Part shown: positions 19,254 through 61,165 of the stretch, one piece after another
Numbering within the stretch: the stretch's first letter is position 1
Layout: every line of letters begins with the position of its first letter
DNA from: Spironucleus salmonicida
Lineage: Eukaryota
Assembly (NCBI RefSeq): GCF_000497125.1
Contig: NC_090596.1
Coordinates: 930,001 to 994,000, forward strand
Direction: 5' to 3'
Length of the DNA: 64,000 nucleotides
The notes under the pieces: generated by a model
Seen by the model: the letters and a program-made list of their open reading frames with translations, nothing else
What the model was told of the DNA's origin: nothing
The model's database searches: none
Made by a program: the position numbers and the translations under genes

Positions 19254-21830
19254 ATGCCACTCTATTTAACGCTGTCTCCAGGGGCACAGTTCATACCCAA
19301 ATATCTATTAGAGCGCCTGCAGCTGGTACTACTGGAATAGTCCACAGTTTCAGACTGTCAGAATGCTGTTGTTTTAGGCGCGTCCCAAACGGAACAAGCA
19401 GCTCGTGGCCTCAACGGACCCATTTTGTTCGTGAAGCTACCAAAATCTGAGGCCCTCCTACGTCTCCGAGTATAGTTTGGTGCGGATGCGGATACGAAGC
19501 TGTAGGCATTCGAGGCAGAAAACCTAGAATAAATTGCGGACTTCATAGCTTTCGAGAACCAAGAAGCATGCCTAGAGGAGATACTAACAGAGTACGCGGC
19601 CAGTTTACCGCGTGATCATTTTGTAGCTGATACAACGGATGACCTTAATCAAATTGTTTCAGGCTCTGTGGGCGAAGAAAATACCAATAAAGCTGATATT
19701 GTAACTGCTGATCTAAAAAATGATACAACTGACTAAAAACTCACTAACTCTGATATAGCATTAAGCTAAGTTTCCAATACCTCGGAACACCAAATTCTAC
19801 CAACGCTCCTTGCACAGCTCGAGATCCAAAATGGGCTGCTCAACTCACGCCTCTCAGATTCAGACGTCTCGCGCGAGAATACGCGGCTGCGAGATCTCAC
19901 GCACTCGCTTTTGGCGCAGCTTTCAGAGCGAAAATCGCAGTCACGCGTCGAAAACTCTACTTTTAACTTTGAAAACGAAACGAAAAGCTCAAACCAACTG
20001 ATATAACAACTGATATAACCTCAAAATCAGCCAAATCCACAACTGACACATCACCTAACCCGCCCCTAACTCTCTAATTTCTCCCTCCTCCAACACTCCG
20101 AAACTGTGCAATACGCGAACATCCAAAACCCGATTTCCAGATAGTTCCTCTGCGCGATCTGCCTGGACCCGCTGCTGCAGCCGCTGACGCTGAACTGCGG
20201 CCATTCCTTCTGCGCAAAATGCGCGCTTTTGAGCGAGCGCTTCTGCGGCAAATCGTGCCCGCAGTGCACGTCCCCGTACGCAGAATTACCGTTTCTGGAC
20301 ATTTACCTGCAGCAAAACGTGAATTCCCAAATGAATTTCGACTTTTCGCTCCACAAAAACGATTTCGCGCGCCAGCTTTCTGGCGAGTTCTGCAGGGTCC
20401 TGGACGTGCAAAGGAAGCCCTACGACGTCGTAACGCGTTCTTTGAGCCTGCGCGCGACAGAAAAAACCGAAATCGCGCGCGTTCAGTGCGCTACCGGCGA
20501 GGCGCGCACGGAGCTCTTCAATTTGGTCAAATTCTCACCGATTTACAGCCGAATTTCGACCAGAATCGACGTCGGCGACTACGTCGTGAAGGCTGTTAAA
20601 ACGGTCAAAAACGCGTACGCAGCCGACGCGTACACGCCGTTTATCGATAAATTTCAGGCCGTGCCGCTGCTCGCGTTCGCGCAGACGCAGGCGGAGATCT
20701 TCCAGTTTCTGGGCTTCTCGGATTCCGTTTTCAGGCTCGCGGATTATCGCGAAAGGGCGTTCGAAATCGATAATTTGGACGAATACTTCAAATTAGGAGT
20801 GGAAAATCAAAATTCAACTGATATAACGCATTAAAACTGCGCAGGGTGCCAGAAACCCTCAAATCTCGCCGTTACGGGCTCCTGCGGCTGCACTTTCTGC
20901 TATTTCTGCGCTGCGAAGCTCGTCCGAAACGGCGTTCCGTGCCAGTTCTGCGGCGTCGCGGTGCGGCTCGAATCGCAGTTTTTCACGTCCCTGAAAGGCA
21001 GCTTTTTGGAGTGCGATTTTCCGGTTTTCTGCGACGGAAAAATGCAGTTTTTGATCGCGAAATTCGGCGAAATTTGCGTCCTCCAGACCGCTTCCGGCGC
21101 GCGCGCCCTCAAGAATCTGCAGGAAATCACGGAAATCGACTTTTCGCAACTCGTCCCGGCGCTGCGGCCGCAAAACGGCGATTTGGCCGTCCAGATCGGA
21201 AAAACGTACAACTCGCTGGCAATTTGCGATAAAAACACAATTTCAGGCCTTTTTAGGAGCGGAATTTTATATTCTAAATAATATATAATAACTAATATAA
21301 AATTAACAAATTCTACAGCAATTTCTGCGAATTTTTGCGTGCAGTGCCGCGACGTGGCGAAGCGCGCCATTTTGCACGCCTGCGGCGCGCGCCTCTGCCG
21401 CACCTGCGCGATCGCCTCCTGCGCCGGCGGATTTCCGTGCTTTTCGTGCGGCGCCGGCGTCGTTTTCCGCGACGTCCAGCGGCTCGAAATCGGCGGCCTC
21501 GACTGCGGGACGGTCTGCATGAAGCGCCACAGCCGCGTGGCGAGCTTCGGGAGCGTCTGCGGCTTCGTGCGCAGCGCCCAGAAAACGACTTTTTGCGTCG
21601 TTTTCGCCTGCGGGAGCCAGAAAGTCGCGGAGCGGGAACTCGCGTTCGTGGCGGAGGGGAATCTGGAGCGGGGCGGGCGCGCGATCGTGGGCCAGCTCTG
21701 CGTGGTCGCCAGCGGCGCCCTGGAGGGCGTTTACGGCATTTTGCTCGACGGCGCGAAGCGGGACGTCCTGTTAGAAATCGGCGTCCGGCTGCGCTGCGAG
21801 GAGCTGGAGGGGGTGAGGGTTGTGAGGTGA
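19254..21830 (+). CDS. Protein with two RING-type zinc fingers (858 aa), probable E3 ligase
   Basis: CAICLDPLLQPLTLNCGHSFCAKC...CPQC (C3HC4) near 20150 and CVQC...CGARLCRTC...CFSC near 21340. Supplied ORFs 20229, 20961 and 21339 are all in this frame. Confidence 0.85.
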
Positions 21831-22089
21831 GTAAAATTTCGGGGCAGGGGTGAATTGCACTCGATTGGGGTGGTTTCGTCGGTTAAAAATTTTTAGTTCT
21901 ACTGTTAATATTGGTGTATTATCGTATAATAATGAGGTTATATTTACTTTTTAAAAACTAGATGTTTTGGTAAAACTTAATATTATATAGTAATAAAGCA
22001 ATATTTATTTTTTAAATTTACGGGTCCTGTAAATTAATGAAAAGGTATTATTATTATTATTATTTTATACCTATATTATCTTGCTGCTC

Positions 22090-22993: not shown

Positions 22994-23077
22994 TGGGCGT
23001 TCGACATGCCGGGCGTGGTGAGCCGCAAGAAGCAGCTGATGCCGCACCTCATTAACGTGGTGGCGCAGCTCGGGTGA
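22994..23077 (+). pseudogene. Orphan 3' fragment (last 27 codons plus stop) of the pyrophosphatase gene
   Basis: WAFDMPGVVSRKKQLMPHLINVVAQLG-TGA, identical to the end of 33847-35778; the rest of the gene is absent upstream. Confidence 0.9.
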
Positions 23078-23091
23078 AGTGACGTACTTTC

Positions 23092-23844
23092 TCACACTAC
23101 CTGGTCGTAGCACTCCACGAAGCCTGACACGGCGCAGAAGATGTCCGCGACCATGTCATCCAGGTCGCACCAGCGCTGCTGCCCGTCCTGGGCGTCCTCG
23201 GAGCTGGCCCGGCCCTGCGCAGTGTTGAGGCTGTACTCGCACTCGGCCGTCTCCGTCTTGCGCTTGTTGATGTGGACTGCCAGCGTGAAGCGCAGGTGCG
23301 TGTGCGCGATGATGCGCTGGGCCGCAGAGAGCACCAGGGAGGCCCGGTCGCACAATTAGCTCTGCAGGAAGGCGAGCTGGTCGGTCGCGCTGGGGGCGCT
23401 GCGGGAGGTGATGAGCTCGCCACCGAAGACGAGGTAGGCGTTCTGGACGTAGCGCATCTCGCCCACCTCCAGCAGGATGCCGCGCACCGTGGAGCCCAGA
23501 ATGTCCATGCGGTGCCGCTGAATCAGCTCCGGTTGCGGCGTGCCCTGGTACTTCGTGAGCGCCTGGAGGATGGCCCCCGCGAGCTGTACCCCGAAAAAGC
23601 GGCTCTAGCAGGAGTGGAGCACCACCACCTGGCTGGCCTCGTTCTGGGCGAAGGACGCGGAGAAGTCCGCAAACTGGACGTGCGCCAGCGGCCCGAGCGG
23701 GCTCTGGGCGGCGTGGAACTGCGAGAAGAAGGACGTCACCAGCTTCGGCGTGAGCTACTTGTAGGAGCCCGTGATCGGGTGCAGCGTCTTCTGGAACAGC
23801 AGCTGCCGGGAGCCGACCGCGAGCTGGTAGATCTCGTAGATCAT
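23092..23844 (-). CDS. Hypothetical protein (250 aa), left-arm copy
   Basis: Mirror of 33080-33832 with a few substitutions; strong GC3 bias in this frame. Confidence 0.75.
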
Positions 23845-23902
23845 TTTTGGAGCGAGGGAATATAGTATAATACGCGGAGGGTGCGTGCAGTGAGGGCATA
23901 AA

Positions 23903-24028
23903 TCAGGTCTGTTCCTCGGCGCCATGCTCGCCGGTCTGGTACTTCGCGTCCTTGTAGGAGTGCGGGTTCGCCTCGAAGGCGGCGCAGTAGATCTCGTAGG
24001 GCCAGGCGTCGAACGACTGGGCTTCCAT
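23903..24028 (-). CDS. 41-aa micro-ORF, left-arm copy
   Basis: MEAQSFDAWPYEIYCAAFEANPHSYKDAKYQTGEHGAEEQT; nearly all third positions G/C. Confidence 0.45.
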   Translation of the reverse strand: MEAQSFDAWPYEIYCAAFEANPHSYKDAKYQTGEHGAEEQT

Positions 24029-24123
24029 TTATGGCGGTCCCACCCTCGCAGCAATTCACAAACGCACACCCGCCTTAAACATCATAATAGCGAGGTGGCC
24101 GCCCCTTCCACTCCTCAATCAAC

Positions 24124-24993
24124 ATGGACAAGATGCACGACAGCATGCCCGAGCACGTCAGAGTGGAGCGCCAGATGCTCACCGCCGAGGTCATCGTCTA
24201 CGCCAAGATATCGGCTGCCAAGGCCGGTATGGCCACCATGTCCCTGCCTCCCCAGTGCCACTACCAGCTCACCCTCGCCGAGGCCACCCCCATCAGAGGC
24301 TCAGTCCCCGCCGGCCCCGTGAAGCTCATCATCGTCGGTGAGGCCCAGCCCGCCCTCAATACCGGAATGGCCCTCTTCGGGTCCAGCCAGGATGGCCACC
24401 TCGCCTTCACCGGGATGCTCGTAAAGTCCCTGGCGGATATCCAGGGCATGGTCAGGTCGAACCCCGCCGGATGGGTCAACCAGGGCGCCCCATGGGAGGG
24501 CGACTTCTGCCACCCCGAGATCGACACCGCGGGCGCGACCGTCTGCCTCTCCACCGGGAGGCCCGCCTTCGCGTGCCCCGGCTTCACGCTTAAGGTGGAG
24601 CAGGTCATCCCCGCGGACGTGAAGGAGTTCCAGAACCCGTTCGGCGACGGCAAGTTCACGGTCTCGGTCACCAACAACGGCCCCAAGCAGATATGCAAGG
24701 CCCTCTTCGCGGACGCCAGCGGTGCCCCCCTCTTCGAGCAGTCTTTGATCGCGATTTCGGAGCAGGAGCCCCACGTCTGGAGCCAGGCGCTCCCCGCTTC
24801 GATCAAGTAGGTCGAGTTCGAGGCCGGCCAGACCATCACGGGGGAGGTGGACACCCTCAAGATCCAGAACATCAGCTGGCCCCAGGGCGGCATGAGGGTG
24901 TACTTCACCTTCGTGCTCGGCGATCTCATGAGCGCCAACTTCTTCTACTACTACTCCAGCTGCCACGACTCCATGGTGGAGGCGCGCAAGTGA
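24124..24993 (+). CDS. Unknown-function GC-rich protein (289 aa), left-arm copy
   Basis: Supplied 228-aa ORF extends through TAG to ...WPQGGMRVYFTFVLGDLMSANFFYYYSSCHDSMVEARK, ending AAG-TGA; strong GC3 bias. Confidence 0.85.
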
Positions 24994-26524
24994 GGTTTGC
25001 TGTTATTCACTGCCGGATGTCCAGGGCGGCTGGCAGGCCCGTGATGCGGAACCTGCTCAAGCGCCACACGCTGCATGCGCAGGGAGCAGTGCGGTTTCTG
25101 ATGGTAGTCTCCATTATAGAATATGCACGGGTTTCCACTAAATGGGAAGTCGAGGGTAATCTGCGCCGCTGTTTAGTTGCGAGTCAAATTGCGGGTCCCC
25201 TGGTATCGTCCATGCACAGCCTGGATCCGTAGAGCGAGCACTTACGAGGTTGGCAAAAGGAAGTATACGCGCAATACATATCGGGTTGCGAGATAAACTG
25301 GAACTAAAAAGTAATTTTTAAAACGTTTTCAATATTGCCCACTTTCTAAAATGAAGTGGGGCCTGGTTGACAAGGTAGCTCTTGTTTAGGCGGGATAAAT
25401 TCACAATAAAAACTTCTACCTAATATAATAGTAGTATTTTTTTGAATTCACAGTAATTCAGCTGCGCTATAAGCACCGAAATATTCTTCGGTGCCGAAGT
25501 AGAGAGGACCGATAAGTGATGGCTACCGTCACAATTATGCAGTCTGCGTAGAATAACCTTGCCAGCTTATGTTTCGGGGATATTTCCAGGGCAGACTATC
25601 ATGAATGATTTAGTACTGAGATTGGTTAGCGCCGAATATTCTTTTTACTCGATACAACCTCGTTATCAGAGTTTTGTGGTTTGCTTCATTTGTGGTATAT
25701 ATCTTTATATATTTATTACCATTTGCTGATAGCATAAACTAGGTTATATGCGATGAGTAGAAAACTTACCATATGAGGAAAATGGTACGTTGGTCCCAGA
25801 CAACTATTATTCTATATTTGCATAGCATTGCATCCCTACTGCATGAGAATTGACTCTTAACATTTTTATTTTGGACCAAATAAAGTTTAGACTGTTTACA
25901 ACCAAACTTAGCACTGACACTAATATCATATCAGATGATCGGAGTGCCATACTTACTTGGCAGTATATATTTTTATCTGCATTAAGCTACTACTTACGCA
26001 TAGTATCTGTTAGACAGTGTTCTAGCTATTCCACTAGAATTATTTTCTTAGGGTTAGTGCGATGACTATTCTCCGCGTAAAAGTAGTGATCCAAATATTT
26101 TAAATATCAGGGCTCTGATCATTTTGCTGAGCTCAACCATAATTATAAACGATCTGTGCAATTAAAAAAATCATCGATACATCCAGTCAGGACTTTATGA
26201 TGCAATTATAATTTAGTCTGATTTAACTATGCCCTTGCATTATCTTGCGTCTGTGCAATCAGAAAAATCCTTAGTAGTAATGTAAATATAATCGTAACCA
26301 GTCTCAATAAAGAGGCATAGATAATCCCATTAATCAATTATTTCATACTCTGTAATACTCACTCTGCCAAATGTTAACGATCTCCCTATAAACTTTTTTG
26401 GGGCATGATTTTATGCTCTTGAATATATTATTGTATATTTATTGTTATATAAATAAGTGTCACTTTACTAGTCTAATAAAGATAAACACTAAATAGATTA
26501 TTATAATATAAGTTTTAAATGAAC

Positions 26525-27229
26525 TCAGTCAAAATCAACGTAAAAGTGGCAGTCTGTCTCTTTCAGGTAAGAAGCAGGGCAATCGCTTGAAATGGCGCCA
26601 AATGCCTAATGGACGGCGTCAGATTTTGCGGCTCCAGTTGCAAGAAGTACGTGTTTTTTAGCTTTTAGAATAGTCGAAATTCCTACCGTTAAAGAACTGT
26701 TAGGAATATGTTCTCCTTCCTGGAAAAATCTAGCATTTGCCTTAATAGTGCTTTCTGATAATTAAACTAAACGGGTTTTAGATGTACCATCGCTGCCTGG
26801 TTCATTAAATGCAATATGCCCATTGTGTCCGATTCCTAAAAGCCAGATATCAGGAGGACTTTATTAAACAAGAGACTCATAACGGTCACATTCTTATTGA
26901 ATGTCTTCTTGTTTAACTTCGCCATTTAGGAAATTGGTATTCTCGGGTTTAATATTGATATGTTTGAATAAATTTTCATACATGAAATACTTATAAGATT
27001 GGTGATGAGATCCACTTATCCCATAATATTCATCTAAATTAATTGTCTTCACTTGAGAGAAGTCTAATTTTTCTTCTTTATGAAGGCGAATTAGTTCGTT
27101 ATAAACTGGAATAGGAGTTGAACCTGTAGCTAATCCTAAGATACATACTGGATTTTAACGTACTATTGACGCGATTTCATTGGCTACATCAATAGCTGGA
27201 GTCGATGATTTAATGAGTTTCGAAGGCAT
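26525..27229 (-). CDS. nagB: Glucosamine-6-phosphate deaminase, left-arm copy
   Basis: Mirror of 29680-30384. Confidence 0.93.
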
Positions 27230-28335
27230 TTGAAAAAGTAAATCGGGAGTGGGATAAACTATTATATCGTTATAATTTTATTTATTTAGATGGTAAAATT
27301 AAAAGTAAAAAATATATATGATTTATTTTACTGATAATGATAGTTGAGTTGAGTTTATTCTAAATATGAGCTAATCTTTCAAACCGTTAAATCAGTAAGT
27401 TTGAATTAATATAACTGGAAATATAATATGATAGTTCAATTCAGTTAGTATATAATTGATTAATACCCACCGAAAAGTCTAACTATCATCAGTATATGCA
27501 GTATATTTATTTTCATCGAAATGATTGCATATCTTAAAAATCAATATACTTGCATTACCTTTAAATTTATTAATACAAATAGATGCTTTATAAAAGGATT
27601 TAGACGTGTTTTCTGTTATAGTAATACTATTATGGCCGTGTTGTCTTGACCGTTGTTTTCCCATTCGCCAGACAAGCCTCAGGAAGCTTGTTTTGAAATA
27701 ATAGTATGCTGATTTAAAAACGTGGAAGCCCTACCAATACTTCGCTCACTACACTGGGCCAGCTAGCAATCGCGATGAAACTCGCCATGTATTATGTTCC
27801 AAATAGATACCAAGGTGTCCATCTCCGGAGTTCGGGAATGGGAGATAGCATTAGTATGCGCGTAGGGTTTGTGAAATTTTGCTTTGAGCATCTGATCTCG
27901 CGGCGGTCCCGCTCAGTAACGCCGAGCAGGGATACGCTTGCTGGGCAGGTAGGGCATTGGGAGGGCGGAAGTTTTGCACGTATTGATCATATCAGTAAGC
28001 ATCATTATGTATAGTTGCATGTAATTAATAACCTTTTAAATGGCTAGCTATACGCACTGTGCTAATATTGGTTCATTTTCATATGTCGAAAATAAGTTAT
28101 TATTTGAAAATTATTAAGTATAATTAAAATTAATATCCTTTTTAATTATTGGGATCGATAATAAATAGTAATAATACTATACTAGAATAAGAACTAGTGA
28201 AAAACAGTTTAAAAGTAAGAACATTTATTAAACTCTTAATATGTATAATATAACTTATTTAATATACATACTTGTAATAAATATAATATATAACTATAAT
28301 GTAATAATATTTTAAACTCTCAACACAAGTTATAA

Positions 28336-28635
28336 ATGGGAGCAGTCGGAAGTTTGATATCTAGTGCGGACACGTACCTGCTGAGCCAAGTGGACGAGGT
28401 GGAGTAACTTGATAACATCCTTCCTAAGCCAACCACCGCCAATTTGAAGATAGCGAAGAACCAAACCTTCCCACCATTCGCTTAATCGCAGCAGCCATTG
28501 TAAAACATGTCCTCCAACAAGCTCATATGCAGCAACAGCCTGTCCTTCATGACAGAGCACTTCCTGCTCAGCTCCCAGGCGTCGCAGATGTTCAGCATGG
28601 TAGACGAGCCGCTGAAGGAGCTGTACGTCGACTGA
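28336..28635 (+). CDS. Small MG-family protein (99 aa), putatively N-myristoylated
   Basis: MGAVGSLISSADTYLLSQVD...SQMFSMVDEPLKELYVD; frame preserved in the second copy with a CAG/TAA swap. Confidence 0.75.
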
Positions 28636-28764
28636 AGTGGGGTAATGAGTTTATTTTGGTTTCTTTTTTATACTTACTATAAAGATAGGTAACCAACAAA
28701 TTTAATCGGATCCGCAGACCTTCCGAAATACGACTGGCGCACCTCCCATAGGCCAACGGCCATC

Positions 28765-29163
28765 ATGCGGCCCAGGCGATTGGAAAGTTCTGCATATGGC
28801 TTAACCACTCTGGCGGCTGACCACGCACAGGGCAGCATGGGAATTTCATGCAGCGGCGTGAAGAGCTTCTTTACCGTCGCCTGCGCCTTCCGCTACCATT
28901 CCACCGCTCTCGGAAACGTGGAGTAGCGCGTGCAAAACTTCCGCCCTCCCAATGCCCTACCTGCCCAGCAAGCGTATCCCTGCTCGGCGTTACTGAGCGG
29001 GACCGCCGCGAGATCAGATGCTCAAAGCAAAATTTCACAAACCCTACGCGCATACTAATGCTATCTCCCATTCCCGAACTCCGGAGATGGACACCTTGGT
29101 ATCTATTTGGAACATAATACATGGCGAGTTTCATCGCGATTGCTAGCTGGCCCAGTGTAGTGA
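28765..29163 (+). CDS. Possible hypothetical protein (132 aa) inside the 965-bp repeat
   Basis: MRPRRLESSAYG... ends TAG-TGA; no motif recognised; copy at 46226-46624. Confidence 0.3.
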
Positions 29164-29679
29164 GCGAAGTATTGGTAGGGCTTCCACGTTTTTAAATCAG
29201 CATACTATTATTTCAAAACAAGCTTCCTGAGGCTTGTCTGGCGAATGGGAAAACAACGGTCAAGACAACACGGCCATAATAGTATTACTATAACAGAAAA
29301 CACGTCTAAATCCTTTTATAAAGCATCTATTTGTATTAATAAATTTAAAGGTAATGCAAGTATATTGATTTTTAAGATATGCAATCATTTCGATGAAAAT
29401 AAATATACTGCATATACTGATGATAGTTAGACTTTTCGGTGGGTATTAATCAATTATATACTAACTGAATTGAACTATCATATTATATTTCCAGTTATAT
29501 TAATTCAAACTTACTGATTTAACGGTTTGAAAGATTAGCTCATATTTAGAATAAACTCAACTCAACTATCATTATCAGTAAAATAAATCATATATATTTT
29601 TTACTTTTAATTTTACCATCTAAATAAATAAAATTATAACGATATAATAGTTTATCCCACTCCCGATTTACTTTTTCAA

Positions 29680-30384
29680 ATGCCTTCGAAACTCATTAAA
29701 TCATCGACTCCAGCTATTGATGTAGCCAATGAAATCGCGTCAATAGTACGTTAAAATCCAGTATGTATCTTAGGATTAGCTACAGGTTCAACTCCTATTC
29801 CAGTTTATAACGAACTAATTCGCCTTCATAAAGAAGAAAAATTAGACTTCTCTCAAGTGAAGACAATTAATTTAGATGAATATTATGGGATAAGTGGATC
29901 TCATCACCAATCTTATAAGTATTTCATGTATGAAAATTTATTCAAACATATCAATATTAAACCCGAGAATACCAATTTCCTAAATGGCGAAGTTAAACAA
30001 GAAGACATTCAATAAGAATGTGACCGTTATGAGTCTCTTGTTTAATAAAGTCCTCCTGATATCTGGCTTTTAGGAATCGGACACAATGGGCATATTGCAT
30101 TTAATGAACCAGGCAGCGATGGTACATCTAAAACCCGTTTAGTTTAATTATCAGAAAGCACTATTAAGGCAAATGCTAGATTTTTCCAGGAAGGAGAACA
30201 TATTCCTAACAGTTCTTTAACGGTAGGAATTTCGACTATTCTAAAAGCTAAAAAACACGTACTTCTTGCAACTGGAGCCGCAAAATCTGACGCCGTCCAT
30301 TAGGCATTTGGCGCCATTTCAAGCGATTGCCCTGCTTCTTACCTGAAAGAGACAGACTGCCACTTTTACGTTGATTTTGACTGA
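29680..30384 (+). CDS. nagB: Glucosamine-6-phosphate deaminase (234 aa)
   Basis: [55 protein letters not shown]. Confidence 0.95.
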
Positions 30385-31930
30385 GTTCATTTAAAACTTA
30401 TATTATAATAATCTATTTAGTGTTTATCTTTATTAGACTAGTAAAGTGACACTTATTTATATAACAATAAATATACAATAATATATTCAAGAGCATAAAA
30501 TCATGCCCCAAAAAAGTTTATAGGGAGATCGTTAACATTTGGCAGAGTGAGTATTACAGAGTATGAAATAATTGATTAATGGGATTATCTATGCCTCTTT
30601 ATTGAGACTGGTTACGATTATATTTACATTACTACTAACTCAATTACGACTAAGGATTTTTCTGATTGCACAGACGCAAGATAATGCAAGGGCATAGTTA
30701 AATCAGACTAAATTATAATTGCATCATAAAGTCCTGACTGGATGTATCGATGATTTTTTTAATTGCACAGATCGTTTATAATTATGGTTGAGCTCAGCAA
30801 AATGATCAGAGCCCTGATATTTAAAATATTTGGATCACTACTTTTACGCGGAGAATAGTCATCGCACTAACCCTAAGAAAATAATTCTAGTGGAATAGCT
30901 AGAACACTGTCTAACAGATACTATGCGTAAGTAGTAGCTTAATGCAGATAAAAATATATACTGCCAAGTAAGTATGGCACTCCGATCATCTGATATGATA
31001 TTAGTGTCAGTGCTAAGTTTGGTTGTAAACAGTCTAAACTTTATTTGGTCCAAAATAAAAATGTTAAGAGTCAATTCTCATGCAGTAGGGATGCAATGCT
31101 ATGCAAATATAGAATAATAGTTGTCTGGGACCAACGTACCATTTTCCTCATATGGTAAGTTTTCTACTCATCGCATATAACCTAGTTTATGCTATCAGCA
31201 AATGGTAATAAATATATAAAGATATATACCACAAATGAAGCAAACCACAAAACTCTGATAACGAGGTTGTATCGAGTAAAAAGAATATTCGGCGCTAACC
31301 AATCTCAGTACTAAATCATTCATGATAGTCTGCCCTGGAAATATCCCCGAAACATAAGCTGGCAAGGTTATTCTACGCAGACTGCATAATTGTGACGGTA
31401 GCCATCACTTATCGGTCCTCTCTACTTCGGCACCGAAGAATATTTCGGTGCTTATAGCGCAGCTGAATTACTGTGAATTCAACAAAATACTACTATTATA
31501 TTAGGTAGAAGTTTTTATTGTGAATTTATCCCGCCTAAACAAGAGCTACCTTGTCAACCAGGCCCCACTTCATTTTAGAAAGTGGGCAATATTGAAAACG
31601 TTTTAAAAATTACTTTTTAGTTCCAGTTTATCTCGCAACCCGATATGTATTGCGCGTATACTTCCTTTTGCCAACCTCGTAAGTGCTCGCTCTACGGATC
31701 CAGGCTGTGCATGGACGATACCAGGGGACCCGCAATTTGACTCGCAACTAAACAGCGGCGCAGATTACCCTCGACTTCCCATTTAGTGGAAACCCGTGCA
31801 TATTCTATAATGGAGACTACCATCAGAAACCGCACTGCTCCCTGCGCATGCAGCGTGTGGCGCTTGAGCAGGTTCCGCATCACGGGCCTGCCAGCCGCCC
31901 TGGACATCCGGCAGTGAATAACAGCAAACC

Positions 31931-32800
31931 TCACTTGCGCGCCTCCACCATGGAGTCGTGGCAGCTGGAGTAGTAGTAGAAGAAGTTGGCGCTCATGAGA
32001 TCGCCGAGCACGAAGGTGAAGTACACCCTCATGCCGCCCTGGGGCCAGCTGATGTTCTGGATCTTGAGGGTGTCCACCTCCCCCGTGATGGTCTGGCCGG
32101 CCTCGAACTCGACCTACTTGATCGAAGCGGGGAGCGCCTGGCTCCAGACGTGGGGCTCCTGCTCCGAAATCGCGATCAAAGACTGCTCGAAGAGGGGGGC
32201 ACCGCTGGCGTCCGCGAAGAGGGCCTTGCATATCTGCTTGGGGCCGTTGTTGGTGACCGAGACCGTGAACTTGCCGTCGCCGAACGGGTTCTGGAACTCC
32301 TTCACGTCCGCGGGGATGACCTGCTCCACCTTAAGCGTGAAGCCGGGGCACGCGAAGGCGGGCCTCCCGGTGGAGAGGCAGACGGTCGCGCCCGCGGTGT
32401 CGATCTCGGGGTGGCAGAAGTCGCCCTCCCATGGGGCGCCCTGGTTGACCCATCCGGCGGGGTTCGACCTGACCATGTCCTGGATATCCGCCAGGGACTT
32501 TACGAGCATCCCGGTGAAGGCGAGGTGGCCATCCTGGCTGGACCCGAAGAGGGCCATTCCGGTATTGAGGGCGGGCTGGGCCTCACCGACGATGATGAGC
32601 TTCACGGGGCCGGCGGGGACTGAGCCTCTGATGGGGGTGGCCTCGGCGAGGGTGAGCTGGTAGTGGCACTGGGGAGGCAGGGACATGGTGGCCATACCGG
32701 CCTTGGCAGCTGATATCTTGGCGTAGACGATGACCTCGGCGGTGAGCATCTGGCGCTCCACTCTGACGTGCTCGGGCATGCTGTCGTGCATCTTGTCCAT
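31931..32800 (-). CDS. Unknown-function GC-rich protein (289 aa), right-arm copy
   Basis: Mirror of 24124-24993; one G/D difference (IQGMV vs IQDMV). Confidence 0.85.
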
Positions 32801-32895
32801 GTTGATTGAGGAGTGGAAGGGGCGGCCACCTCGCTATTATGATGTTTAAGGCGGGTGTGCGTTTGTGAATTGCTGCGAGGGTGGGACCGCCATAA

Positions 32896-33021
32896 ATGGA
32901 AGCCCAGTCGTTCGACGCCTGGCCCTACGAGATCTACTGCGCCGCCTTCGAGGCGAACCCGCACTCCTACAAGGACGCGAAGTACCAGACCGGCGAGCAT
33001 GGCGCCGAGGAACAGACCTGA
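32896..33021 (+). CDS. 41-aa micro-ORF, right-arm copy
   Basis: Mirror of 23903-24028. Confidence 0.45.
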   Translation: MEAQSFDAWPYEIYCAAFEANPHSYKDAKYQTGEHGAEEQT

Positions 33022-33079
33022 TTTATGCCCTCACTGCACGCACCCTCCGCGTATTATACTATATTCCCTCGCTCCAAAA

Positions 33080-33832
33080 ATGATCTACGAGATCTACCAG
33101 CTCGCGGTCGGCTCCCGGCAGCTGCTGTTCCAGAAGACGCTGCACCCGATCACGGGCTCCTACAAGCAGCTCACGCCGAAGCTGGTGACGTCCTTCTTCT
33201 CGCAGTTCCACGCCGCCCAGAGCCCGCTCGGGCCGCTGGCGCACGTCCAGTTTGCGGACTTCTCCGCGTCCTTCGCCCAGAACGAGGCCAGCCAGGTGGT
33301 GGTGCTCCACTCCTGCTAGAGCCGCTTTTTCGGGGTACAGCTCGCGGGGGCCATCCTCCAGGCGCTCACGAAGTACCAGGGCACGCCGCAACCGGAGCTG
33401 ATTCAGCGGCACCGCATGGACATTCTGGGCTCCACGGTGCGCGGCATCCTGCTGGAGGTGGGCGAGATGCGCTACGTCCAGAACGCCTACCTCGTCTTCG
33501 GTGGCGAGCTCATCACCTCCCGCAGCGCCCCCAGCGCGACCGACCAGCTCGCCTTCCTGCAGAGCTAATTGTGCGACCGGGCCTCCCTGGTGTTTTCTGC
33601 GGCCCAGCGCATCATCGCGCACACGCACCCGCGCTTCACGCTGGCAGTCCACATCAACAAGCGCAAGACGGAGACGGCCGAGTGCGAGTACAGCCTCAAC
33701 ACTGCGCAGGGCCGGGCCAGCTTCGAGGACGCCCAGGATGGGCAGCAGCGCTGGTGCGACCTGGATGACATGGTCGCGGACATCTTCTGCGCCGTGTCAG
33801 GCTTCGTGGAGTGCTACGACCAGGTAGTGTGA
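33080..33832 (+). CDS. Hypothetical protein (250 aa), N-terminus possibly longin-like
   Basis: MIYEIYQLAVGSRQLLFQKTLHP...ECYDQVV; C-rich box and AAAA before ATG; GC3 bias. Fold guess is weak. Confidence 0.75.
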
Positions 33833-33846
33833 GAAAGTACGTCACT

Positions 33847-41703: not shown

Positions 41704-41754
41704 TTATATAAAAATGAATCATATACAATATATGCTATGATTTAATTTTGTATA

Positions 41755-42252: not shown

Positions 42253-42262
42253 GGAAAGTTTA

Positions 42263-42880: not shown

Positions 42881-42957
42881 TAAAGAAGGGGGAATCAATG
42901 AAATTAATTTAATTGATTCCAGTTTATTTTATATTGTCATACAGATTTTTAATAATA

Positions 42958-43389: not shown

Positions 43390-43428
43390 GTATTATTATA
43401 TAATATAAGTCCCTACTTTCCCTAAAAT

Positions 43429-44792: not shown

Positions 44793-45794
44793 CACCAATT
44801 TGTTGGGTAGCCTGCACAGCTGGAGTGTGGCGGGCTTCATTACCGTGTCGAAACTACCGTTGACCGTGGCCTCTGTGCCGCTGTGATTGCAATGCAGGTT
44901 TCGGCTAGGACTCATACTCACCCGCCTCCAGTCACTTGCACTGGTCTGTGGACCTGTAGGCCGCCCAATCCTGCAGGGCAGCATATATTCACCAGGTAGT
45001 CGCGTAGCTGCGTCTGCTGTGGCCTGCACACAGGGCCTACTAGTGACGTAGGACCTGCAGCCGACTTCCAAATGCCGTATTGCGCAGGTGCAGTTCCGCA
45101 GTGCAACACACCCAGGCACGAAGCCGCCGTGATTGGCCACTTGCCGCACGCGCCTTTCCGGTCCTGGAAGCTCGCTTCCGGATGGCGCTCGGCGGAGTTT
45201 TGCTCCGGCGCACCACCCGAAGCGAGGGCTGCGCATGCACGCTGTGGAAGGCCGGCGCGCGGCATCCGGCCAACGTTACGCTGGGCGAGAGTATATTTAG
45301 ATCTGATAGGAATATATAAATTTTACGCTAAAAGTGGAACAAATATTATTAACAGAATTTACTTTTAATAATTTTAATTTTTGGTGAGGATACAGTTTAA
45401 AAAAATGGTTAATGATATTTTTTCTGAGTTTACTATAAATAATGATGTTTATTGTGAATTTTCTAATAGCAAAATAATGGTTCTAGGAAATTTTATTGAT
45501 CATTTATAACCATAAATATGCAGAAACTTAATCAGCATGTTTTCTTATAAAGCAGAAAAGCAAAAAGACTTACTATATATTTACATATATTAACTAAATA
45601 GAATAAAATTGTTAAGTTGTATTCGACTTAGATTATTAAGTACTAAAATTATCATTATTTCAAGTAGTAAAATAATATCACAATTATATATAAATTCAAA
45701 ATTTATTGAATATCGAGTATAATTATGAACAAATCATAAAAATATTATAAGTTATTTATTTAATATTAATTAAAAGTCAAACTATGGTACATTA

Positions 45795-46759
45795 AAATGG
45801 GAGCAGTCGGAAGTTTGATATCTAGTGCGGACACGTACCTGCTGAGCCAAGTGGACGAGGTGGAGTAACTTGATAACATCCTTCCTAAGCCAACCACCGC
45901 CAATTTGAAGATAGCGAAGAACCAAACCTTCCCACCATTCGCTTAATCGTAACAGCCATTGTAAAACATGTCCTCCAACAAGCTCATATGCAGCAACAGC
46001 CTGTCCTTCATGACAGAGCACTTCCTGCTCAGCTCCCAGGCGTCGCAGATGTTCAGCATGGTAGACGAGCCGCTGAAGGAGCTGTACGTCGACTGAAGTG
46101 GGGTAATGAGTTTATTTTGGTTTCTTTTTTATACTTACTATAAAGATAGGTAACCAACAAATTTAATCGGATCCGCAGACCTTCCGAAATGCGACTGACG
46201 CACCTCCCATAGGCCAACGGCCATCATGCGGCCCAGGCGATTGGAAAGTTCTGCATATGGCTTAACCACTCTGGCGGCTGACCACGCACAGGGCAGCATG
46301 GGAATTTCATGCAGCGGCGTGAAGAGCTTCTTTACCGTCGCCTGCGCCTTCCGCTACCATTCCACCGCTCTCGGAAACGTGGAGTAGCGCGTGCAAAACT
46401 TCCGCCCTCCCAATGCCCTACCTGCCCAGCAAGCGTATCCCTGCTCGGCGTTACTGAGCGGGACCGCCGCGAGATCAGATGCTCAAAGCAAAATTTCACA
46501 AACCCTACGCGCATACTAATGCTATCTCCCATTCCCGAACTCCGGAGATGGACACCTTGGTATCTATTTGGAACATAATACATGGCGAGTTTCATCGCGA
46601 TTGCTAGCTGGCCCAGTGTAGTGAGCGAAGTATTGGTAGGGCTTCCACGTTTTTAAATCAGCATACTATTATTTCAAAACAAGCTTCCTGAGGCTTGTCT
46701 GGCGAATGGGAAAACAACGGTCAAGACAACACGGCCATAATAGTATTACTATGACAGAA
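45795..46759. repeat. 965-bp direct repeat, copy 2
   Basis: Near-identical to 28334-29298. Confidence 0.95.
45797..46096 (+). CDS. Small MG-family protein (99 aa), second copy
   Basis: Same protein as 28336-28635. Confidence 0.75.
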
Positions 46760-47495: not shown

Positions 47496-48005
47496 ATGGA
47501 CACGTATGTACCTTCTTACCCTTAGGTTGATATAAAGACAACATGTGTTTAGTTTGAAAGCAAGGTACCTGATACGATTTTTGATTTCGACAAATACTTT
47601 ATATCGTTTACCTCTAATGATTAGATTGGCCCACATTTTTAGATCTGCTCAATTCACTTTGAGGTACTTAACAGGATTCCTTGTGACGACACTGCTGGTT
47701 TTACTATGCCAGGAGTGTATTTTACCGGAAGTGGTAACCATATGTTGGATCTTACCACTGCTACTCTCTATAAGAGAAATCCTAAGGCTGACTTTTAAAG
47801 CATTTGGGAGTTCGTCCGCACTAACACTAAGGATGGAACCTACATCAACGAAGTCTAGAAAGTGGTATTCGATGAATACGAATGCGACTACGAACAATGG
47901 ACCAAAAGAATGAACGAGTACTACCATAAGGAAGATAAAGACCTGGTCCACTACAACGTGGACTCCCTCTGTAAGGTTTAAATCGACAACGGTGACTTGG
48001 AGTGA
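47496..48005 (+). CDS. Hypothetical protein (169 aa)
   Basis: MDTYVPSYPQVDIKTTC...QIDNGDLE, ends GAG-TGA; natural codon and residue pattern. Confidence 0.7.
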
Positions 48006-48358
48006 TGAATCTTTGCCTGGAGCTGCCCGCAAACCGTCAATTTCCTTTCCTTTCAAATGGCCACAATCCTACACCCTAAATATCATATATCTCTGTTCTA
48101 CTCACGCTTGTCCTCCTAACACTCTATTTCACCATTTCTTCACTTCTCTATTTCCAACTGATATATCATAAATTTTCACTCCACATTCCTCTTTTCCCCA
48201 TCTATTTGTGCACAGCACCCCTTATATTCCATATTCCCCATTTCTCTTCAGAATTATTCAATTCACTCCCATTAAATCTCCCATTTTCATCCCCCAAATT
48301 CATCACAACTGATATAACAACTGATATAACGTTTTTTTCACTCCCACTAATTCCGCCC

Positions 48359-49084
48359 TCACCGCCGCTTGTAAACGCACGGCCGCAAGCGCACCAGCAC
48401 GCGCCCACTGCCCTCCCCCGCTGCGCCCTTCTCGTAGCAGCTTACGTGGAAGTAGTTGTAGTCGCAGCGGTAGAAACAGCGAAATCCGACGCTTTCCACT
48501 CCTTTTACGAACTGATCCAACGGCGAGCGGGAGCCGACCTCCGCGACCCACAACTCGCCCGAATCGCTCAGGACGCGGAAGGCCTCGCTGAGCATTTTCG
48601 CCGGTTCGCCCATCAGCGAAAGCGAGAAAATGCAGACGTCGGCGGCCCCGGCGGCCGCCGGGAGATTCGTGGCGTCAGCCACTTCCACGAAAGGGGCAGT
48701 TTCCGGCACCTGCAAATCGAAGGAGCGAAAAGTCAAATTTGAATTCAATTTTTGCAATTTTGCGTCGCCGCAGCCGATGTCGAAAATCGTCAAATTCGCA
48801 AAATTCGTCTTTTTTGTCAGAATTTTATTTGTCGAAATTTGCGCGTTTTGGGGGTTTTGCAGGCAGTCGGCAAAGAGGTCCACGGGGTTCAGCTGCCACG
48901 ACGTCGTTTGGAGCCTGAAGCCCTCGTGGTACTGCGCGAACAATTACGGGTTTTCCTGAAACGCCGTTAGGGAGGCGGCGGTAGGCTGCGTGTAGAGCTG
49001 CTCGTTCAGCAGTCGAAATTTGGCAGATTTGACCTTTTCGGAGGCCGAAAGCTTCGTGGAAAAGCTCTTTTTATGGTTCTTCAT
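48359..49084 (-). CDS. RRP8: rRNA m1A methyltransferase RRP8 (241 aa)
   Basis: AKFRLLNEQLYT, YHEGFR, WQLNPVD, DIGCGDAKL, SFDL, FSLSLMG, EAFRVL, VAEVGSR, LRPCVYKRR. Confidence 0.95.
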
Positions 49085-49329
49085 TTAAAAGGAGTGGAAG
49101 AAATTAGTATTATTAAGTATATAATAATGAATAATTATATGAAAAAATTTCCACTCCTTTTATACGAACATCTTAAGGTCTGCGATTTTGCGGGGCGGAC
49201 TTAGTCATTGTTCTAGCACGGCTCATTATGAATAGATTATCCAGGTTATCGTTCTGATAGCATGGTTTTTTAGTGTAATGAAAAAGTTCTCAAATATTTT
49301 TATTTCATTTCGCGGCCGTAAAAGCTCAG

Positions 49330-49512
49330 TCACCAGGCGATCTCCAGCTCCTTTTCCAAGCAATTTCTCTTCTGGTAAATTCTTCTGCGGATGCCATAAT
49401 TCAGTTCGTTTACGATTTCAAGCTTTCGGTCGCTAAATCGCTCAAATCTCACTGTATGTTTCAGCTGCGGATTGCCGTCCCAAGACGTATGCGCCAAATG
49501 GTAATCCGTCAT
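49330..49512 (-). CDS. Hypothetical protein (60 aa)
   Basis: AAAATG start and a true TGA stop. Confidence 0.45.
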   Translation of the reverse strand: MTDYHLAHTSWDGNPQLKHTVRFERFSDRKLEIVNELNYGIRRRIYQKRNCLEKELEIAW

Positions 49513-49843
49513 TTTAAATTACGATTTCTGGAGGTTATTGATTTGAATGGCCAGGAAATTGCATATTAAAGTGATTTAATTTTATGACTTAAAAATTAGA
49601 CAATCAGTTTTTAGCGTATTATGAGATATTTGTGCAGTTTTAAAAAACATTTAAGCTAAGTTGTTATTAGCGATATATAACATAATGAGGGTAAAAATCG
49701 GTAGACACGAAAATTGGTACTAAATTTTATATCAGTATTATACGATAATTTAACATAAATTCGAGAAAATGATGAGTACAGCCTGCGTGCAAAAAGTATT
49801 TCTGGGGTTAAAATAATTTTACAGCTATCAAAAACTAGGGTAG

Positions 49844-53958: not shown

Positions 53959-54034
53959 ACCCAAAAACTTAAAATCCATTAAACGCAAATCGCCCTAGAA
54001 TACCGCGAAACCCAAATCACAAATCACGCCCAAA

Positions 54035-54394
54035 ATGCGCCGGGCGAGGTGGAGCCAATTTGAGGTGCAGCGGCTGCAGGAACTCGTGCAGCAGCAGGCG
54101 CAGCTCAGCCCGTTCAACATCGACTGGCTGACGGTCGCCAGGGCGATAGCGTCGAAGTCGCCCGCGCAGTGCCGCGTCCGGTACCACAACAAGACGAAAT
54201 TCGAGAAAGACGCGCCGGGCGGTGCGCGGTGCGAGTGGAAGCAGGGGGACGGCCTAATCGTCATTTAGATGGCGTAAGAAACCGCCAAAAACTGGCAGCT
54301 GATCGCGCGAACACTCAACCGCACCGCCAGCCAGGTCAAAAACCACTACTACTTCATGATGCGGGGGGTGAACAAAATGGTGCGTTCGGAGTGA
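54035..54394 (+). CDS. Two-repeat Myb DNA-binding protein (119 aa)
   Basis: WSQFE...DWLTVA...KSPAQCRVRY and W...KNWQLIARTLNRTASQVKNHYY; ends GAG-TGA. Confidence 0.92.
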
Positions 54395-54438
54395 GCTGTT
54401 GGGGCGCTAAAAAATTAGTAGAACCGTTCACTCACCAG

Positions 54439-54807
54439 TCAGATGTAGTCGAAAATTAGCAGCTTGGGGGCCTCGTTTTTGGATATGAAAAAGCCCTTTC
54501 GCTGCAGCACGTAGAACCTGTTTTTGACGACCGAAACTGTTATGCGCAGCTGCTGGCTGACCGCGCGCCAGTTTCTCTCAGTTTCTTCGGCCATGCACAT
54601 GAGCTTTTCGTCCAGCTTCTGCGTCCAAATGTTCCGCTGGTGCATTGGCGATGGGCCGAACTTTTCGATGTTGTGGAAGCGGTTCGCGCACTGCTAGGCC
54701 GTTTTGGTCTTTATTTGCTCTGCTATCCATTTCCAGTCCATTGGCTGCTAGGATGTCAGAGAGCGTAGTTCTTCGATCTCTACAGCCGACCATGTTCTAA
54801 TGTTCAT
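54439..54807 (-). CDS. Two-repeat Myb DNA-binding protein (122 aa)
   Basis: WSAVE...DWKWIA...KTAQQCANRF and WTQKLDEKL...RNWRAVS...VKNRFY. Confidence 0.92.
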
Positions 54808-57723: not shown

Positions 57724-58005
57724 TCAATCTTTCTCGATCTAATGTTTTAGCACTTTAAACAGGTTACTCTAGCTATAATCCATGATATGCTACTTGACGA
57801 ATACGTTCTACTACTAATTCAGTTCCATTCTGATCTTTCCCTCGAAATACTAAGCTTGAGGCGACGCTGACTTGCCACTAAGAGTAACCGGCGTGCTCGC
57901 CGCCTTAGCTGCGACTGGCTTTTTGGGCGCAGACCTAGCCTTGTCAGTGTCAAAATGTACTAGGTACACGTCTGCATCTGCCACAATCGAGTGCATTTTG
58001 CCCAT
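57724..58005 (-). CDS. Small MG-family protein (93 aa)
   Basis: MGKMHSIVADADVYLVHFD...YSQSNLFKVLKHQIEKD. Confidence 0.65.
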
Positions 58006-58351
58006 TTAATAAAATTTTTACCCCCTAGAATATGGTTTTAATACATAATAGATGCTTTACTGCGAACTGCTCCACTTTCCTTCCGCGAGACCAAATTTGG
58101 CCCAATTTCATGGAATTTCCCCGCTATCATCAGCGTAATGTTCGCAGTATTCCATCATCTTTCAAGCCCCATCACCCCATTTTCTACCAATTTGCAAGCC
58201 TTACAACCCTTGCACGCCACATATAAATGCCCCTTTGAATTTAAATTATCCTTTCCTTACCACTTATTCTAATTATTATATCTTAATATTATTTTTTCTT
58301 CCAAAAAAATTTTATTTTTATTATACACTTATATATACAAATTTCACCACT

Positions 58352-61165
58352 TCACTGCCCCCAAACGCTCTGAATCAGCTCCCCAACTACCCTCGCGACC
58401 TCGCCGCCGAGCCTGTCGCCCAGCCTCTCCAAATCGCTCCGCTGCGCCCCGCCCAAAATCCGCAAAACCCCCAATACCCGCAACGCCGTTTTAGGCGCAA
58501 TTTCGAGCTTCAAAAGGCCAATCGTTATATCAGTTGCCTCATTTTCCACTCCCTAAAACGCTCCATTTTGCGCCAAATCGCGCAGAATCGCAAGCCCGAA
58601 GTTCACGAGCGGCTGCGTCTTAGCGGAAAGGGCGTCAAAACGGAGCAATTTGACAGAAAAATCGCAGAAAAAACTCTAATTTTCATTGAGGGAGTGGAAA
58701 GTCAAATTCTCAAGATTTTCAAAGGAGCGGAAATACGAATTCTGAAGCGATTTGACGATTTGGGGCGATGTTTCTGGCGTGAAATCACGCAATTCCCCTT
58801 CCAATTATTTAGGGAGTCTCTCAGCCAGGTACTCAATGAGCTGAAAAACGGAATTTGCGATTTCTGGGCCCTAGAAGCAAAGCTCCCCAAAACGCGCCAA
58901 ATGGCCGCAGGCGAAAGCCGTCATTTCGATGTCGTAGTGCTTGCAGTCGCAGGCCGAAACGTCCAAATCTGACGTTATTTTTTCGAGCGTTTTTTTGGTA
59001 AATTCGAAATGGAGCGTTTTTGCTTATATCAGTTGAGAATTTGCTTATATCAGTTCATTCCCTCCTTATAGCAGTTAGCAACTGCTATAACGCTCCACTT
59101 AACTGCTACAAACGCCCAACAATTCGACCATTAAACCGAGCCGATCAACTGATATAACGCAATTTGCGGAGTGGATTTCCTCGCAAATCGCAGCCAGCTG
59201 GTCGAAGTGAACCACAAACTCCAGCGGAGCGGTGCGCACCATTTCGGTCACCATCGCGATAACGATCAGCTGCATGTCCACGAGCGCGCTGTCGACGCAC
59301 AAATCGCCCTCGCCGGACACGTCTTTGCGGAACCGAATCGCGGATTTTAAAGCAATTTCAGCGAAAATTCGCACATTTTCGGAAATCAAAATTTCAAGCT
59401 ACTCGGACTTGAACCCTTTCATGATCGACTTTGAACTTTATTACAACAGTTCTACCAATTCGAATTAATAAGCATATGTGAAGATACGCTGGAAAGCGCT
59501 CAAAATCTGATTTTCGATATGCGTGAATTGCGCCGGGAAGTACTGAATCGCGAACCCCAGGCACTCCGTGACGCGCTGCACGAGGTCCAGCTGCGATTTC
59601 GACATCTGCTGATTCTGCGAAATTTGACCGAAAATTTCGTCGAAAAGCGCCAGAATTTGGGGCACAATTTCGGCCAAAAGAGCCCCAATTTCGGCCTCGG
59701 ACTGCACCTCAATCAGCGCGCACAGCAGCGACAGCGCGTTCGATTTCGCGTAGAAATCGTTTTCTGGCCAATTCGCGCGCACGACGCGCGCCAGCGCCGG
59801 CGCGTACGCCAGCAGCTCCTACGGCGCCATTTCGATCGTCACGTTCAGAATCGCAGCCACGAAATGCGAGCGCACGTGCAGAATTCGATTTTCAGAGTTT
59901 GCGAAAAGTGATATAAGGAGCTGATCGGAAAAAGTCGAAATTTGACCCCCAAAATCGTTCGCCAGCTGCCCGCAGACGTTCGCGACGGCGTACAGCACGC
60001 GAGGATGCTCAGAAGCGCCGGAAATGCAACATACTTGATCGACGTAAAATTTCAAATCTGACGCTGAAATGACGTCCACGAAGCCCTCAGCGGCGTAGTT
60101 CAGGCTCATCAGGCAGCCCAGGTCGTCAGATGGCGTTTTTCGCGCCAAAAATGACGTTTTCAGGGCCGAATTTACGACCTAATTCGCGTACTTGAAACTG
60201 CAAAATTCTACAGTTTTTTGGGCCGCGCCGATCAAATCGTCAGCCTGAAACTCCAAATTTCCGACTTCCAGCCACTCCGCAATTTGGTGCTCCTCGTACG
60301 CGCCGGCCGCTGGAATCACAATTCCGAGGAGGAAGGCGGTCAAGATTTCGTAAAATTGTGGCGGCAAATGAATTTGGACGATTTTTGAGCCTAAACGGAG
60401 CATTCTGAGCTTAATTTCGCGATTTGAGGCGCTAAAAACGCTGTTTATGAGGTCGAAAAGTTGCGGGTAAACGGCGTCCAAAACGTCTTTTCGGCACTCG
60501 AAAATTCTACATAAATTTTTTATCATTTGATCTATATATAAATAAGAATTGTGAATTTTTGAAATTTCTACGGCAAATCGTTATATCAGTTCGAAAATGA
60601 CATTTTAAGCGATTTCGAAGTCCATAAAGCACGCATTTGCGACGCAGAGCATTCCGTTTGAGGCGGTTTCGGCGTCTTCGCTGAGCGCGAAAGCGAACGA
60701 AATTTCGAGGAAATTGATGTTCAATTTGCTCGTTAGAGAGGTCGGAATCTGCAGGATTTGCGCTGTCAATTTCGCTGCAATTGCAGGATTTTGGGCGATT
60801 AGCGCTTCGAAAAATGGGGCGAATTCTGGAAAAGGAAGGGACTTTTATAATATGAATTATATATGATTAGTAATAATTTCTAGCAAATGTTAATTTACGA
60901 GGAGGAGTGGCAGAAGTTCCACGATGAGGAGGTGGGGGTTCTAGGTCTTGTAGAGCGAGGCGCTCGTGCCGTTTTTCTCGACGTCGCGTCTGAGCAGGAT
61001 CGCCGCGAACTGTGAAAGCTCGGTGTTGGCTTTGATGACCTCAATGAGGAATGTCGCAAAGTCCACCGGATTCGCATTCCTGAAGTTGAAATACTGCTGC
61101 TCCAGGTCCTGCTGGGGCCGTGTTTGCAGCTCCTAGATCAAATTACAGAAGTTCTAGAAATCCAT
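58352..61165 (-). CDS. Importin beta-3 / importin-5 (Kap121/Pse1)-like karyopherin (937 aa)
   Basis: QFAAILLRR at the N-terminus and EHPRVLYAVANVCGQLANDFG. Five supplied fragments share this frame; ends CAG-TGA. Confidence 0.85.

Follow-up and report, generated by a model that had tools for sequence, protein, structure and literature searches.

A recurrent 13-nucleotide word in a Spironucleus salmonicida contig as a putative protein-binding site

Genes of the window and placement of the word

This analysis concerns a stretch of 64,000 nucleotides (nt) from Spironucleus salmonicida (contig NC_090596.1, positions 930,001 to 994,000; hereafter the window) and a 13-nt word, CAACTGATATAAC, that recurs in its genes and spacers. 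Under the standard genetic code the window falls apart into short frames; when TAA and TAG are read as glutamine and TGA is the sole stop (code 6), long frames appear, and several proteins were found to be publicly annotated by exact look-up (Table 1). A protein scan covered 41 of the 151 open reading frames (ORFs), and the Pfam families detected were clathrin, phosphoribosyltransferase, GDSL, DnaJ, RING, GlcN6P isomerase, DHH/CBS, EF-hand, Fes1, Methyltransf_8 (RRP8), and PP2C, along with one Myb protein. The 937-amino-acid (aa) protein had no Pfam hit, and a homologue search for it returned only the protein itself. A protein atlas grouped it with importin-beta (features 0.96, fold template-modeling (TM) value 0.68), and it is called importin-like here; an AlphaFold model of its residues 537-937, made without an alignment, was unusable, with a mean predicted local distance difference test (pLDDT) score of 42.

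Genes in the window end in TGA; the base before it is G in 8 of 11 genes, and in 5 of 11 the two bases before it are AG. Their starts lie behind A-rich and C-rich stretches. Both contexts agree with those given for S. salmonicida (PMC3916229). All genic copies of the word (4635, 6798, 19995/20007, 20815, 58524, 59023-59158, and 60580) lie in annotated or Pfam-supported coding sequences (CDSs). The clathrin copy falls in a variable loop of the protein, at the edge of a block with high GC content at third codon positions (GC3). The tandem pair at 19995 opens a linker that is poor in G and precedes the RING domain; no in-frame ATG occurs between 19254 and that domain, so the pair must be translated. 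A 353-nt spacer between two convergent stops contains the copies at 48155 and 48306/48318, with the tandem pair 29-53 nt past the stop codon of RRP8.

Sites take three forms: single copies, dimers spaced by 12 bp, and one divergent array. The dimers, found at two unrelated loci, are one and the same 25-mer, made of two 12-nt units with one C in common, and their flanks are unrelated. Two units are also the longest tandem run, and a satellite or tandem repeat was rejected on this ground. An extended element of ~32 nt (GGAGTGGAAAAT, 4-7 nt, and the 13-mer) occurs at 20796-20828 and 58524-58552(-), encoding GVEN..TDIT in two proteins that are unrelated to each other; a third, degenerate element, at 58691-58720, forms an inverted pair with the second, 128 nt away. 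The array is the nested cluster in the importin-like gene, in which three copies point leftward and three rightward. Its outer arms (59024-59036 and 59145-59157) are complementary at 13 of 13 positions, and its inner arms share a variant. Folded as a single strand, the cluster scored z = -3.0, and 1 of 200 shuffles folded as well. Not all of its copies are independent: those at 59023 and 59044 form a local 21-nt tandem duplication, those at 59065(-) and 59079 form a local palindrome in which both carry the variant A7C, and the one at 59100 is a relic with four mismatches.

Table 1. Copies of the word, islands of high GC3 and CpG, and long or publicly annotated frames in the window
Feature	Position	Strand	Context
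1-mismatch copy CAACTGATATAAG	4635..4647	-	Sense strand of clathrin heavy chain; reads QLIQ
2-mismatch copy GTACTGATATAAC	6798..6810	-	Sense strand of GDSL esterase; reads TDIT; 12-mer ACTGATATAACG exact
Tandem pair, 25-mer, 12-nt period	19995..20019	+	Inside CDS of 858-aa RING-finger protein; reads QLIQQLIQ
GGAGTGGAAAAT, 7 nt, exact 13-mer	20796..20827	+	Sense strand of RING gene; reads GVENQNSTDIT
1-mismatch copy CAACTGATATATC	48155..48167	+	Spacer between two convergent stop codons; CACTCC 10 nt downstream
Tandem pair, 25-mer identical to that at 19995	48306..48330	+	Antisense to RRP8; CACTCCC 9 nt downstream
GGAGTGGAAAAT, 4 nt, exact 13-mer	58524..58552	-	Sense strand of 937-aa importin-beta-like gene; reads GVENEATDIT
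Nested inverted-repeat cluster	59023..59158	both	CDS of importin-like protein, in a GC3 trough
Members of the cluster	59023(-), 59044(-), 59065(-), 59079(+), 59100(+), 59146(+)	both	59065 with 3 mismatches, 59100 with 4 mismatches
1-mismatch copy GAACTGATATAAC, then GAT	60580..60592	-	Sense strand of importin-like gene; reads ELIQ
GC3/CpG-rich island	2401..4800		Middle of clathrin gene only
GC3/CpG-rich island	5501-7200
GC3/CpG-rich island	19201-22000
GC3/CpG-rich island	48001-49600
GC3/CpG-rich island	54001-54800
GC3/CpG-rich island	58001-61200
RING protein, 858 aa	19254..21827		Long frame under code 6; publicly annotated
169-aa protein	47496..48002		Publicly annotated
RRP8	48362..49084		Publicly annotated
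119-aa Myb protein	54035..54391		Publicly annotated
Clathrin heavy chain, >1695 aa			Long frame under code 6
2002-aa frame			Long frame under code 6
937-aa protein			Long frame under code 6; publicly annotated
GDSL			Publicly annotated
PP2C			Publicly annotated
Phosphoribosyltransferase			Publicly annotated

A sharply defined word and its surroundings

The word had been noticed in an initial annotation made from the letters alone. All seven exact copies listed there are present (19995, 20007, 20815, 48306, 48318, 58524(-), and 59146), as are its six near-copies (6798(-), 48155, 59023(-), 59044(-), 59079, and 60580(-)); the copy with one mismatch in the clathrin gene, at 4635(-), had been missed. 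A direct search of the whole window set the seven exact copies against an expectation of 0.01, in line with the earlier estimate of far less than one copy per window, and none of 100 dinucleotide-preserving shuffles contained seven or more. At up to two mismatches, 18 matches were found in the window against 2.3 expected. An unbiased k-mer count gave the same answer, as the top-ranked repeated k-mer of the window was this word at each k from 9 to 13. The consensus may be extended by one base: the 13-mer is usually followed by G, and ACTGATATAACG is present six times. All of these counts come from a single 64-kb window and represent about 11 independent sites.

Copies of the word are highly uniform. 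Mismatches among them are found at positions 1, 2, 12, and 13, while the core ACTGATATA is invariant except for the local A7C variant. Matches with three mismatches occur at 0.72 per kb in the islands that bear the motif and at 0.58 per kb elsewhere; this lack of enrichment indicates that the motif class is sharp, without a degenerate tail. Outside the islands, four matches with two mismatches were found (13138, 33944, 34802(-), and 50607(-)), a number that fits the chance expectation of 2.3.

Copies occur in two frames, on both strands, and in noncoding DNA. The third sense frame, which would bring the TGA of the motif, its only stop codon, into frame, is not used by any copy. The initial annotation had translated the word as QLIQ, TDIT, or, in antisense, VISV, and had concluded that selection does not act on a peptide. 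Those translations are correct, although only under code 6, a dependence that it did not mention, and the conclusion was borne out by a shuffle of synonymous codons that keeps the protein and the codon usage of each gene. In 500 such shuffles of seven island genes, the mean was 0.02 exact copies (maximum 1) and 0.21 copies at up to one mismatch (maximum 2), whereas these genes actually hold 5 and 9, respectively. The signal therefore lies in the nucleic acid and not in the peptide. Among the codons that the copies use are ATA and TAA, both of them rare in these GC3-rich genes. Most cautiously put, CAACTGATATAAC is a DNA word that is either selected or actively copied.

The islands, whose limits we drew from the composition profile after the data had been seen, total 12.5 kb, or 19.5% of the window, and hold all 12 copies with at most one mismatch. 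This agrees with the earlier observation that copies are confined to CG-rich domains, with the qualification that the three copies beside RRP8 lie not within an island proper, but next to it, in a spacer poor in G (GC 0.42). Shuffles restricted to the islands gave 0.00 exact copies and 0.01 at up to one mismatch. The islands are an effect of the third codon position: GC3 reaches 0.7-0.9, compared to about 0.28 (0.25-0.3) elsewhere, while GC content at first and second positions is flat. They cut across gene borders, with clathrin affected only at codons ~180-900, and most of their 400-nt bins have a CpG observed/expected ratio of 1.3-2.0. The word itself has a GC content of only 31%, and its copies sit in local AT-rich dips within the islands or at their edges (the latter at 4635, 19995, and 48306).

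Several more familiar identities were considered and rejected. A 4-residue gap at the clathrin copy, apparent against human clathrin, was gone against closer homologues (32-48% identity, equal loop length), and at the GDSL copy the protein aligned to yeast IAH1 without gaps or change in length. These two copies, the ones for which this could be tested, thus arose in place rather than by insertion. As to spliceosomal introns, none of the seven matches (at up to two mismatches) to ACTAACAAACTAG, the published intron 3' motif, lies near any copy; the only GT..AG candidate, 46 nt long and around 20815, would, on removal, cost a zinc finger its first CxxC; and the public proteins read through all copies. 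That the word is the stop or polyadenylation (poly(A)) signal AGTGA was dismissed, as no copy contains any of the 11 stops examined and the TGA of the motif is never in frame. The word is not part of a longer repeat either, since five loci align over the 13-mer only, and no tRNA or Rfam family was found in the window. Genes of the window do show the published Spironucleus promoter and 3'-end signals, and the word contains TATAA and ACTGA; it is, however, absent from all 12 upstream regions and all 11 stop codons examined.

Neither the exact 13-mer nor its complement was found in any paper of the literature searched, a search that did not extend to the motif-logo figures of PMC3916229, which might show a related word. 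Among 56 metagenome loci with two 12-mers within 30 nt of each other, none had the arrangement seen in the window; judged by the context of the matches, these were longer tandem repeats or isolated pairs on unrelated contigs. One lake metagenome contig (positions 1-2136) resembles a satellite: it consists of degenerate units of ~40 nt, with CGACTGATACAACG and GATGGAACGACTGATACAACG recurring among them. The ACTGATA..AACG skeleton of these units is probably shared with the word by chance.

A putative Myb-type site and its alternatives

We favor the reading that CAACTGATATAAC is a recognition site of a sequence-specific DNA-binding protein, with a probability that we put at about 0.4. A Myb/SANT-type factor is a plausible leading candidate for the binder, as a complete c-Myb-type site (CAACTG) is present in the word and is followed, 9 bp on, by a second AAC core (TAACG). 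The c-Myb consensus is YAAC(G/T)G, and the initial annotation was right in stating that CAACTG fits it. Of the 12 copies with at most one mismatch, 10 contain CAACTG and two (59044 and 60580) have GAACTG instead, and five of the seven exact copies contain TAACG. Similarly, the 3' half of the word, ATAACG, resembles the Myb element MRE-1 of Trichomonas vaginalis (ATAACGATATTT), which is bound by tvMyb1-3, and the copies at 58524 and 60580 contain ATAACGAT, in agreement with the core of MRE-1, ATAACGATA (PMC3203581). The host lineage appears rich in such factors, with 107 Myb-domain proteins reported for S. salmonicida (PMC3916229). Where the initial annotation spoke of two local Myb proteins, a single one was found among the ORFs scanned, and its proximity is no evidence of binding. 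As a candidate Myb element, the word differs from known ones in having 13-14 invariant bases instead of ~6, and in lying mostly in CDSs instead of close to promoters.

Long sites are known for polar Myb-type roadblock and terminator proteins (Reb1, TTF-I, and Rtf1), which are well defined, occur in arrays, depend on orientation, and lie between convergent units. The copies studied here are similar in their length and definition, in their arrays and orientation, and in their placement between convergent genes, whereas they show no sequence likeness to those sites and are mostly genic and in sense. Under the favored reading, the 13-mer would be a sharply defined cis-element, maintained at the nucleotide level, at which a protein would bind. 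Its role may then lie in chromatin, replication, recombination, or transcript control, rather than in ordinary promoter activity. If such a site is indeed kept in CDSs through synonymous rare codons, it would represent a second layer of information over the genes of a very compact protist genome, and it would offer a handle on one of the many uncharacterized Myb-type factors of the lineage. The initial annotation, which had inferred a protein-binding site (Myb family, origin or boundary element) or a recombination-linked motif marking these domains, is partly supported, namely in the signal at the nucleotide level, the tie to the domains rich in GC and CpG, the fit of CAACTG, and the presence of a Myb-domain gene; origin, boundary, and recombination roles are candidates.

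Several points weigh against a protein-binding site. If a transcription-factor site evolves by point mutation, it should be accompanied by partially matching sites, whereas matches with three mismatches are not enriched in the islands. Myb sites normally span ~6 bp, and for such a site the uniformity of seven exact 13-mers is unusual. The word was found in none of 12 gene upstream regions (120 nt), which argues that it is not a usual promoter element and sets it apart from Myb recognition elements in promoters. In addition, the independence of strand noted in the initial annotation holds only in that both strands are used: of the independent genic sites, 7 are in sense and 2 in antisense, and both antisense sites belong to the single inverted cluster. 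This bias has P ~0.025 when 40% of sites are expected in sense, a value that follows from the TGA held by one sense frame, and P ~0.09 at 50%; like the island limits, the strand statistics were set post hoc. The sense bias hints at a role at the RNA level or one coupled to transcription. Finally, everything rests on a single 64-kb window. Uniform copies, the missing tail of partial sites, and the preference for the sense strand all keep other readings alive.

One of these readings, which we consider unlikely, is that the word acts in transcripts as a target of small RNAs or of an RNA-binding protein, with the inverted cluster supplying the antisense strand or pairing with it. The sense bias would fit such a role, all the more as its exceptions fall in the palindromic cluster, which folds better than nearly all of its shuffles, and near-perfect uniformity is what recognition by base pairing would be expected to produce. 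Very short 3' untranslated regions, as found in such genomes, would force target sites into ORFs, for which Giardia microRNAs provide a precedent. Poly(A) addition is placed ~14 nt past the stop in PMC3916229, however, and the three spacer copies, which lie 150-325 nt past the stop of the co-oriented gene, would then fall outside its mRNA. Furthermore, the stems of the cluster, of 13 and 11 bp, are too short for a typical Dicer substrate, and the window has no match to any Rfam family.

Just as unlikely, in our estimate, is a short mobile or templated sequence. The copies would then derive from a miniature inverted-repeat element, as its ends or relics, or from filler copied in during break repair, and CDSs would tolerate them because only TGA stops translation. 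Within the importin-like gene, the outer arms of the cluster bound a 124-nt segment (TCAGTTGA...TCAACTGA) that is flanked by TA, and together with one TA this makes 126 nt, or 42 codons, although a length divisible by three arises anyway at a chance of one in three. A second inverted pair (58543-58557 and 58686-58700), the GC3 troughs over the cluster, the uniformity of the copies, and the identical 25-mer at two loci would all suit an element that is copied. The same applies to the 32-33-nt similarity (GGAGTGGAAAAT, a short gap, and the 13-mer) shared by the loci at 20796 and 58552(-), with its degenerate third member at 58691. Most copies lack an inverted partner, however, and no transposase is encoded nearby. 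The five aligned loci show no homology beyond the 13-mer, and the clathrin and GDSL copies are not insertions.

Slightly more doubtful is the view that the word marks a hotspot of recombination or GC-biased conversion. A factor docked at the word would start breaks or repair there, and biased repair would raise synonymous GC and build islands of 1-3 kb. The restriction of the islands to GC3 and their disregard for gene borders, as in clathrin, are consistent with this, as is the presence of at least one copy, at an edge or in an internal trough, in each island of at least 1.6 kb. By contrast, the 0.8-kb island at 54001-54800 has no copy, and no copy was found within the two large near-perfect palindromes of the window (see below), which must convert often. 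At 8 of 11 sites, the sequence immediately 3' of the word has the higher GC (mean difference ~+0.08), a weak polarity that is not significant (sign test, P ~0.1). The human PRDM9 13-mer and the M26/CRE word of S. pombe are likewise short words that are indifferent to coding context and show local GC enrichment, whereas what ties the word to GC3 islands here is only a correlation, seen in one window whose islands were delimited post hoc. In a diplomonad assembly, GC content was 44.7% in duplicated regions against 30.7% (PMC9509377), as would be expected if conversion were GC-biased there. If this view were correct, the word would be a sequence-defined hotspot determinant in a diplomonad-like protist with cryptic sex and recombination. 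More generally, a tie between the word and the GC3 islands, if real, would open to direct testing both how the compositional mosaic originated and cryptic recombination in this lineage.

An internal or antisense core-promoter module seems improbable. TATAA in the word would serve as a TATA-like box, the half with CAACTG would be the site of an upstream factor, and the module would drive noncoding or antisense transcripts. The published layout (PMC3916229) combines a TATA-like box, located at -60 to -20 in hexamitine diplomonads, with a C-rich motif close to -10 and As that precede the ATG. CACTCC(C) follows the copies at 48155 and 48318 after 9-10 nt. A similar C-rich box lies downstream of an AT-rich element in the promoters of the GlcN6P isomerase gene (GATATAA, 8 nt, and CCCACTCCC) and of RRP8 (CCACTCC, ending 6 nt from the ATG and preceded by an AT-rich stretch). 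The C-rich box accompanies only 2 of ~11 sites, however, and GGAGTG/CACTCC, with 5 occurrences near copies against ~0.85 expected (5.9-fold), fails correction for ~2000 hexamers. No ATG follows the copies, which do not fit the core promoter of hexamitine diplomonads, and the word is missing upstream of all 12 annotated genes. An explanation by chance, by codon usage, or by a repeated peptide, in spite of the post hoc choice of the motif, the two pairs of copies that are local duplications, and the chance-like number of matches with two mismatches outside the islands, is refuted within this window, as no type of shuffle comes near the observed counts and the copies occupy two frames, both strands, and noncoding DNA.

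Composition and other repeats in the window

Three classes of composition are found side by side in the window: genes of 20-30% GC that are rich in TAA/TAG glutamine codons, GC3 islands of 50-55% GC with an excess of CpG, and blocks of 60-67% GC. The last of these (23.2-25.2 kb, 31.6-33.8 kb, 37.6 kb, and 44.8 kb) have a CpG observed/expected ratio near 1. Tracts of 150-350 nt that are poor in G and rich in C, A, and T occur at 19990-20140, 48006-48358, and 58139-58351. Two of these lie just past the stops of minus-strand genes and one in the RING CDS, directly after the tandem 13-mers, and their plus strand resembles the sense-strand composition of gene upstream regions.

Two near-perfect palindromes were also observed. 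The first (22994-33930) has arms of ~5 kb (22994-27980 and 28929-33930), a 948-nt spacer, and a small indel. The second (37541-45297) has arms of 3558 nt (37541-41098 and 41740-45297) and a spacer of 641 nt, with a third, partial copy at 45795-46759. They duplicate the GlcN6P isomerase, EF-hand, and Fes1-like genes, along with stretches of 60-67% GC without a Pfam hit.

Lastly, an AT-rich box, TATCATATAT, is common to three upstream regions (5478-5517, 7139-7178, and 35779-35818), at a distance of 30-40 nt from the ATG that follows; it probably represents the TATA-like promoter box known from Spironucleus.

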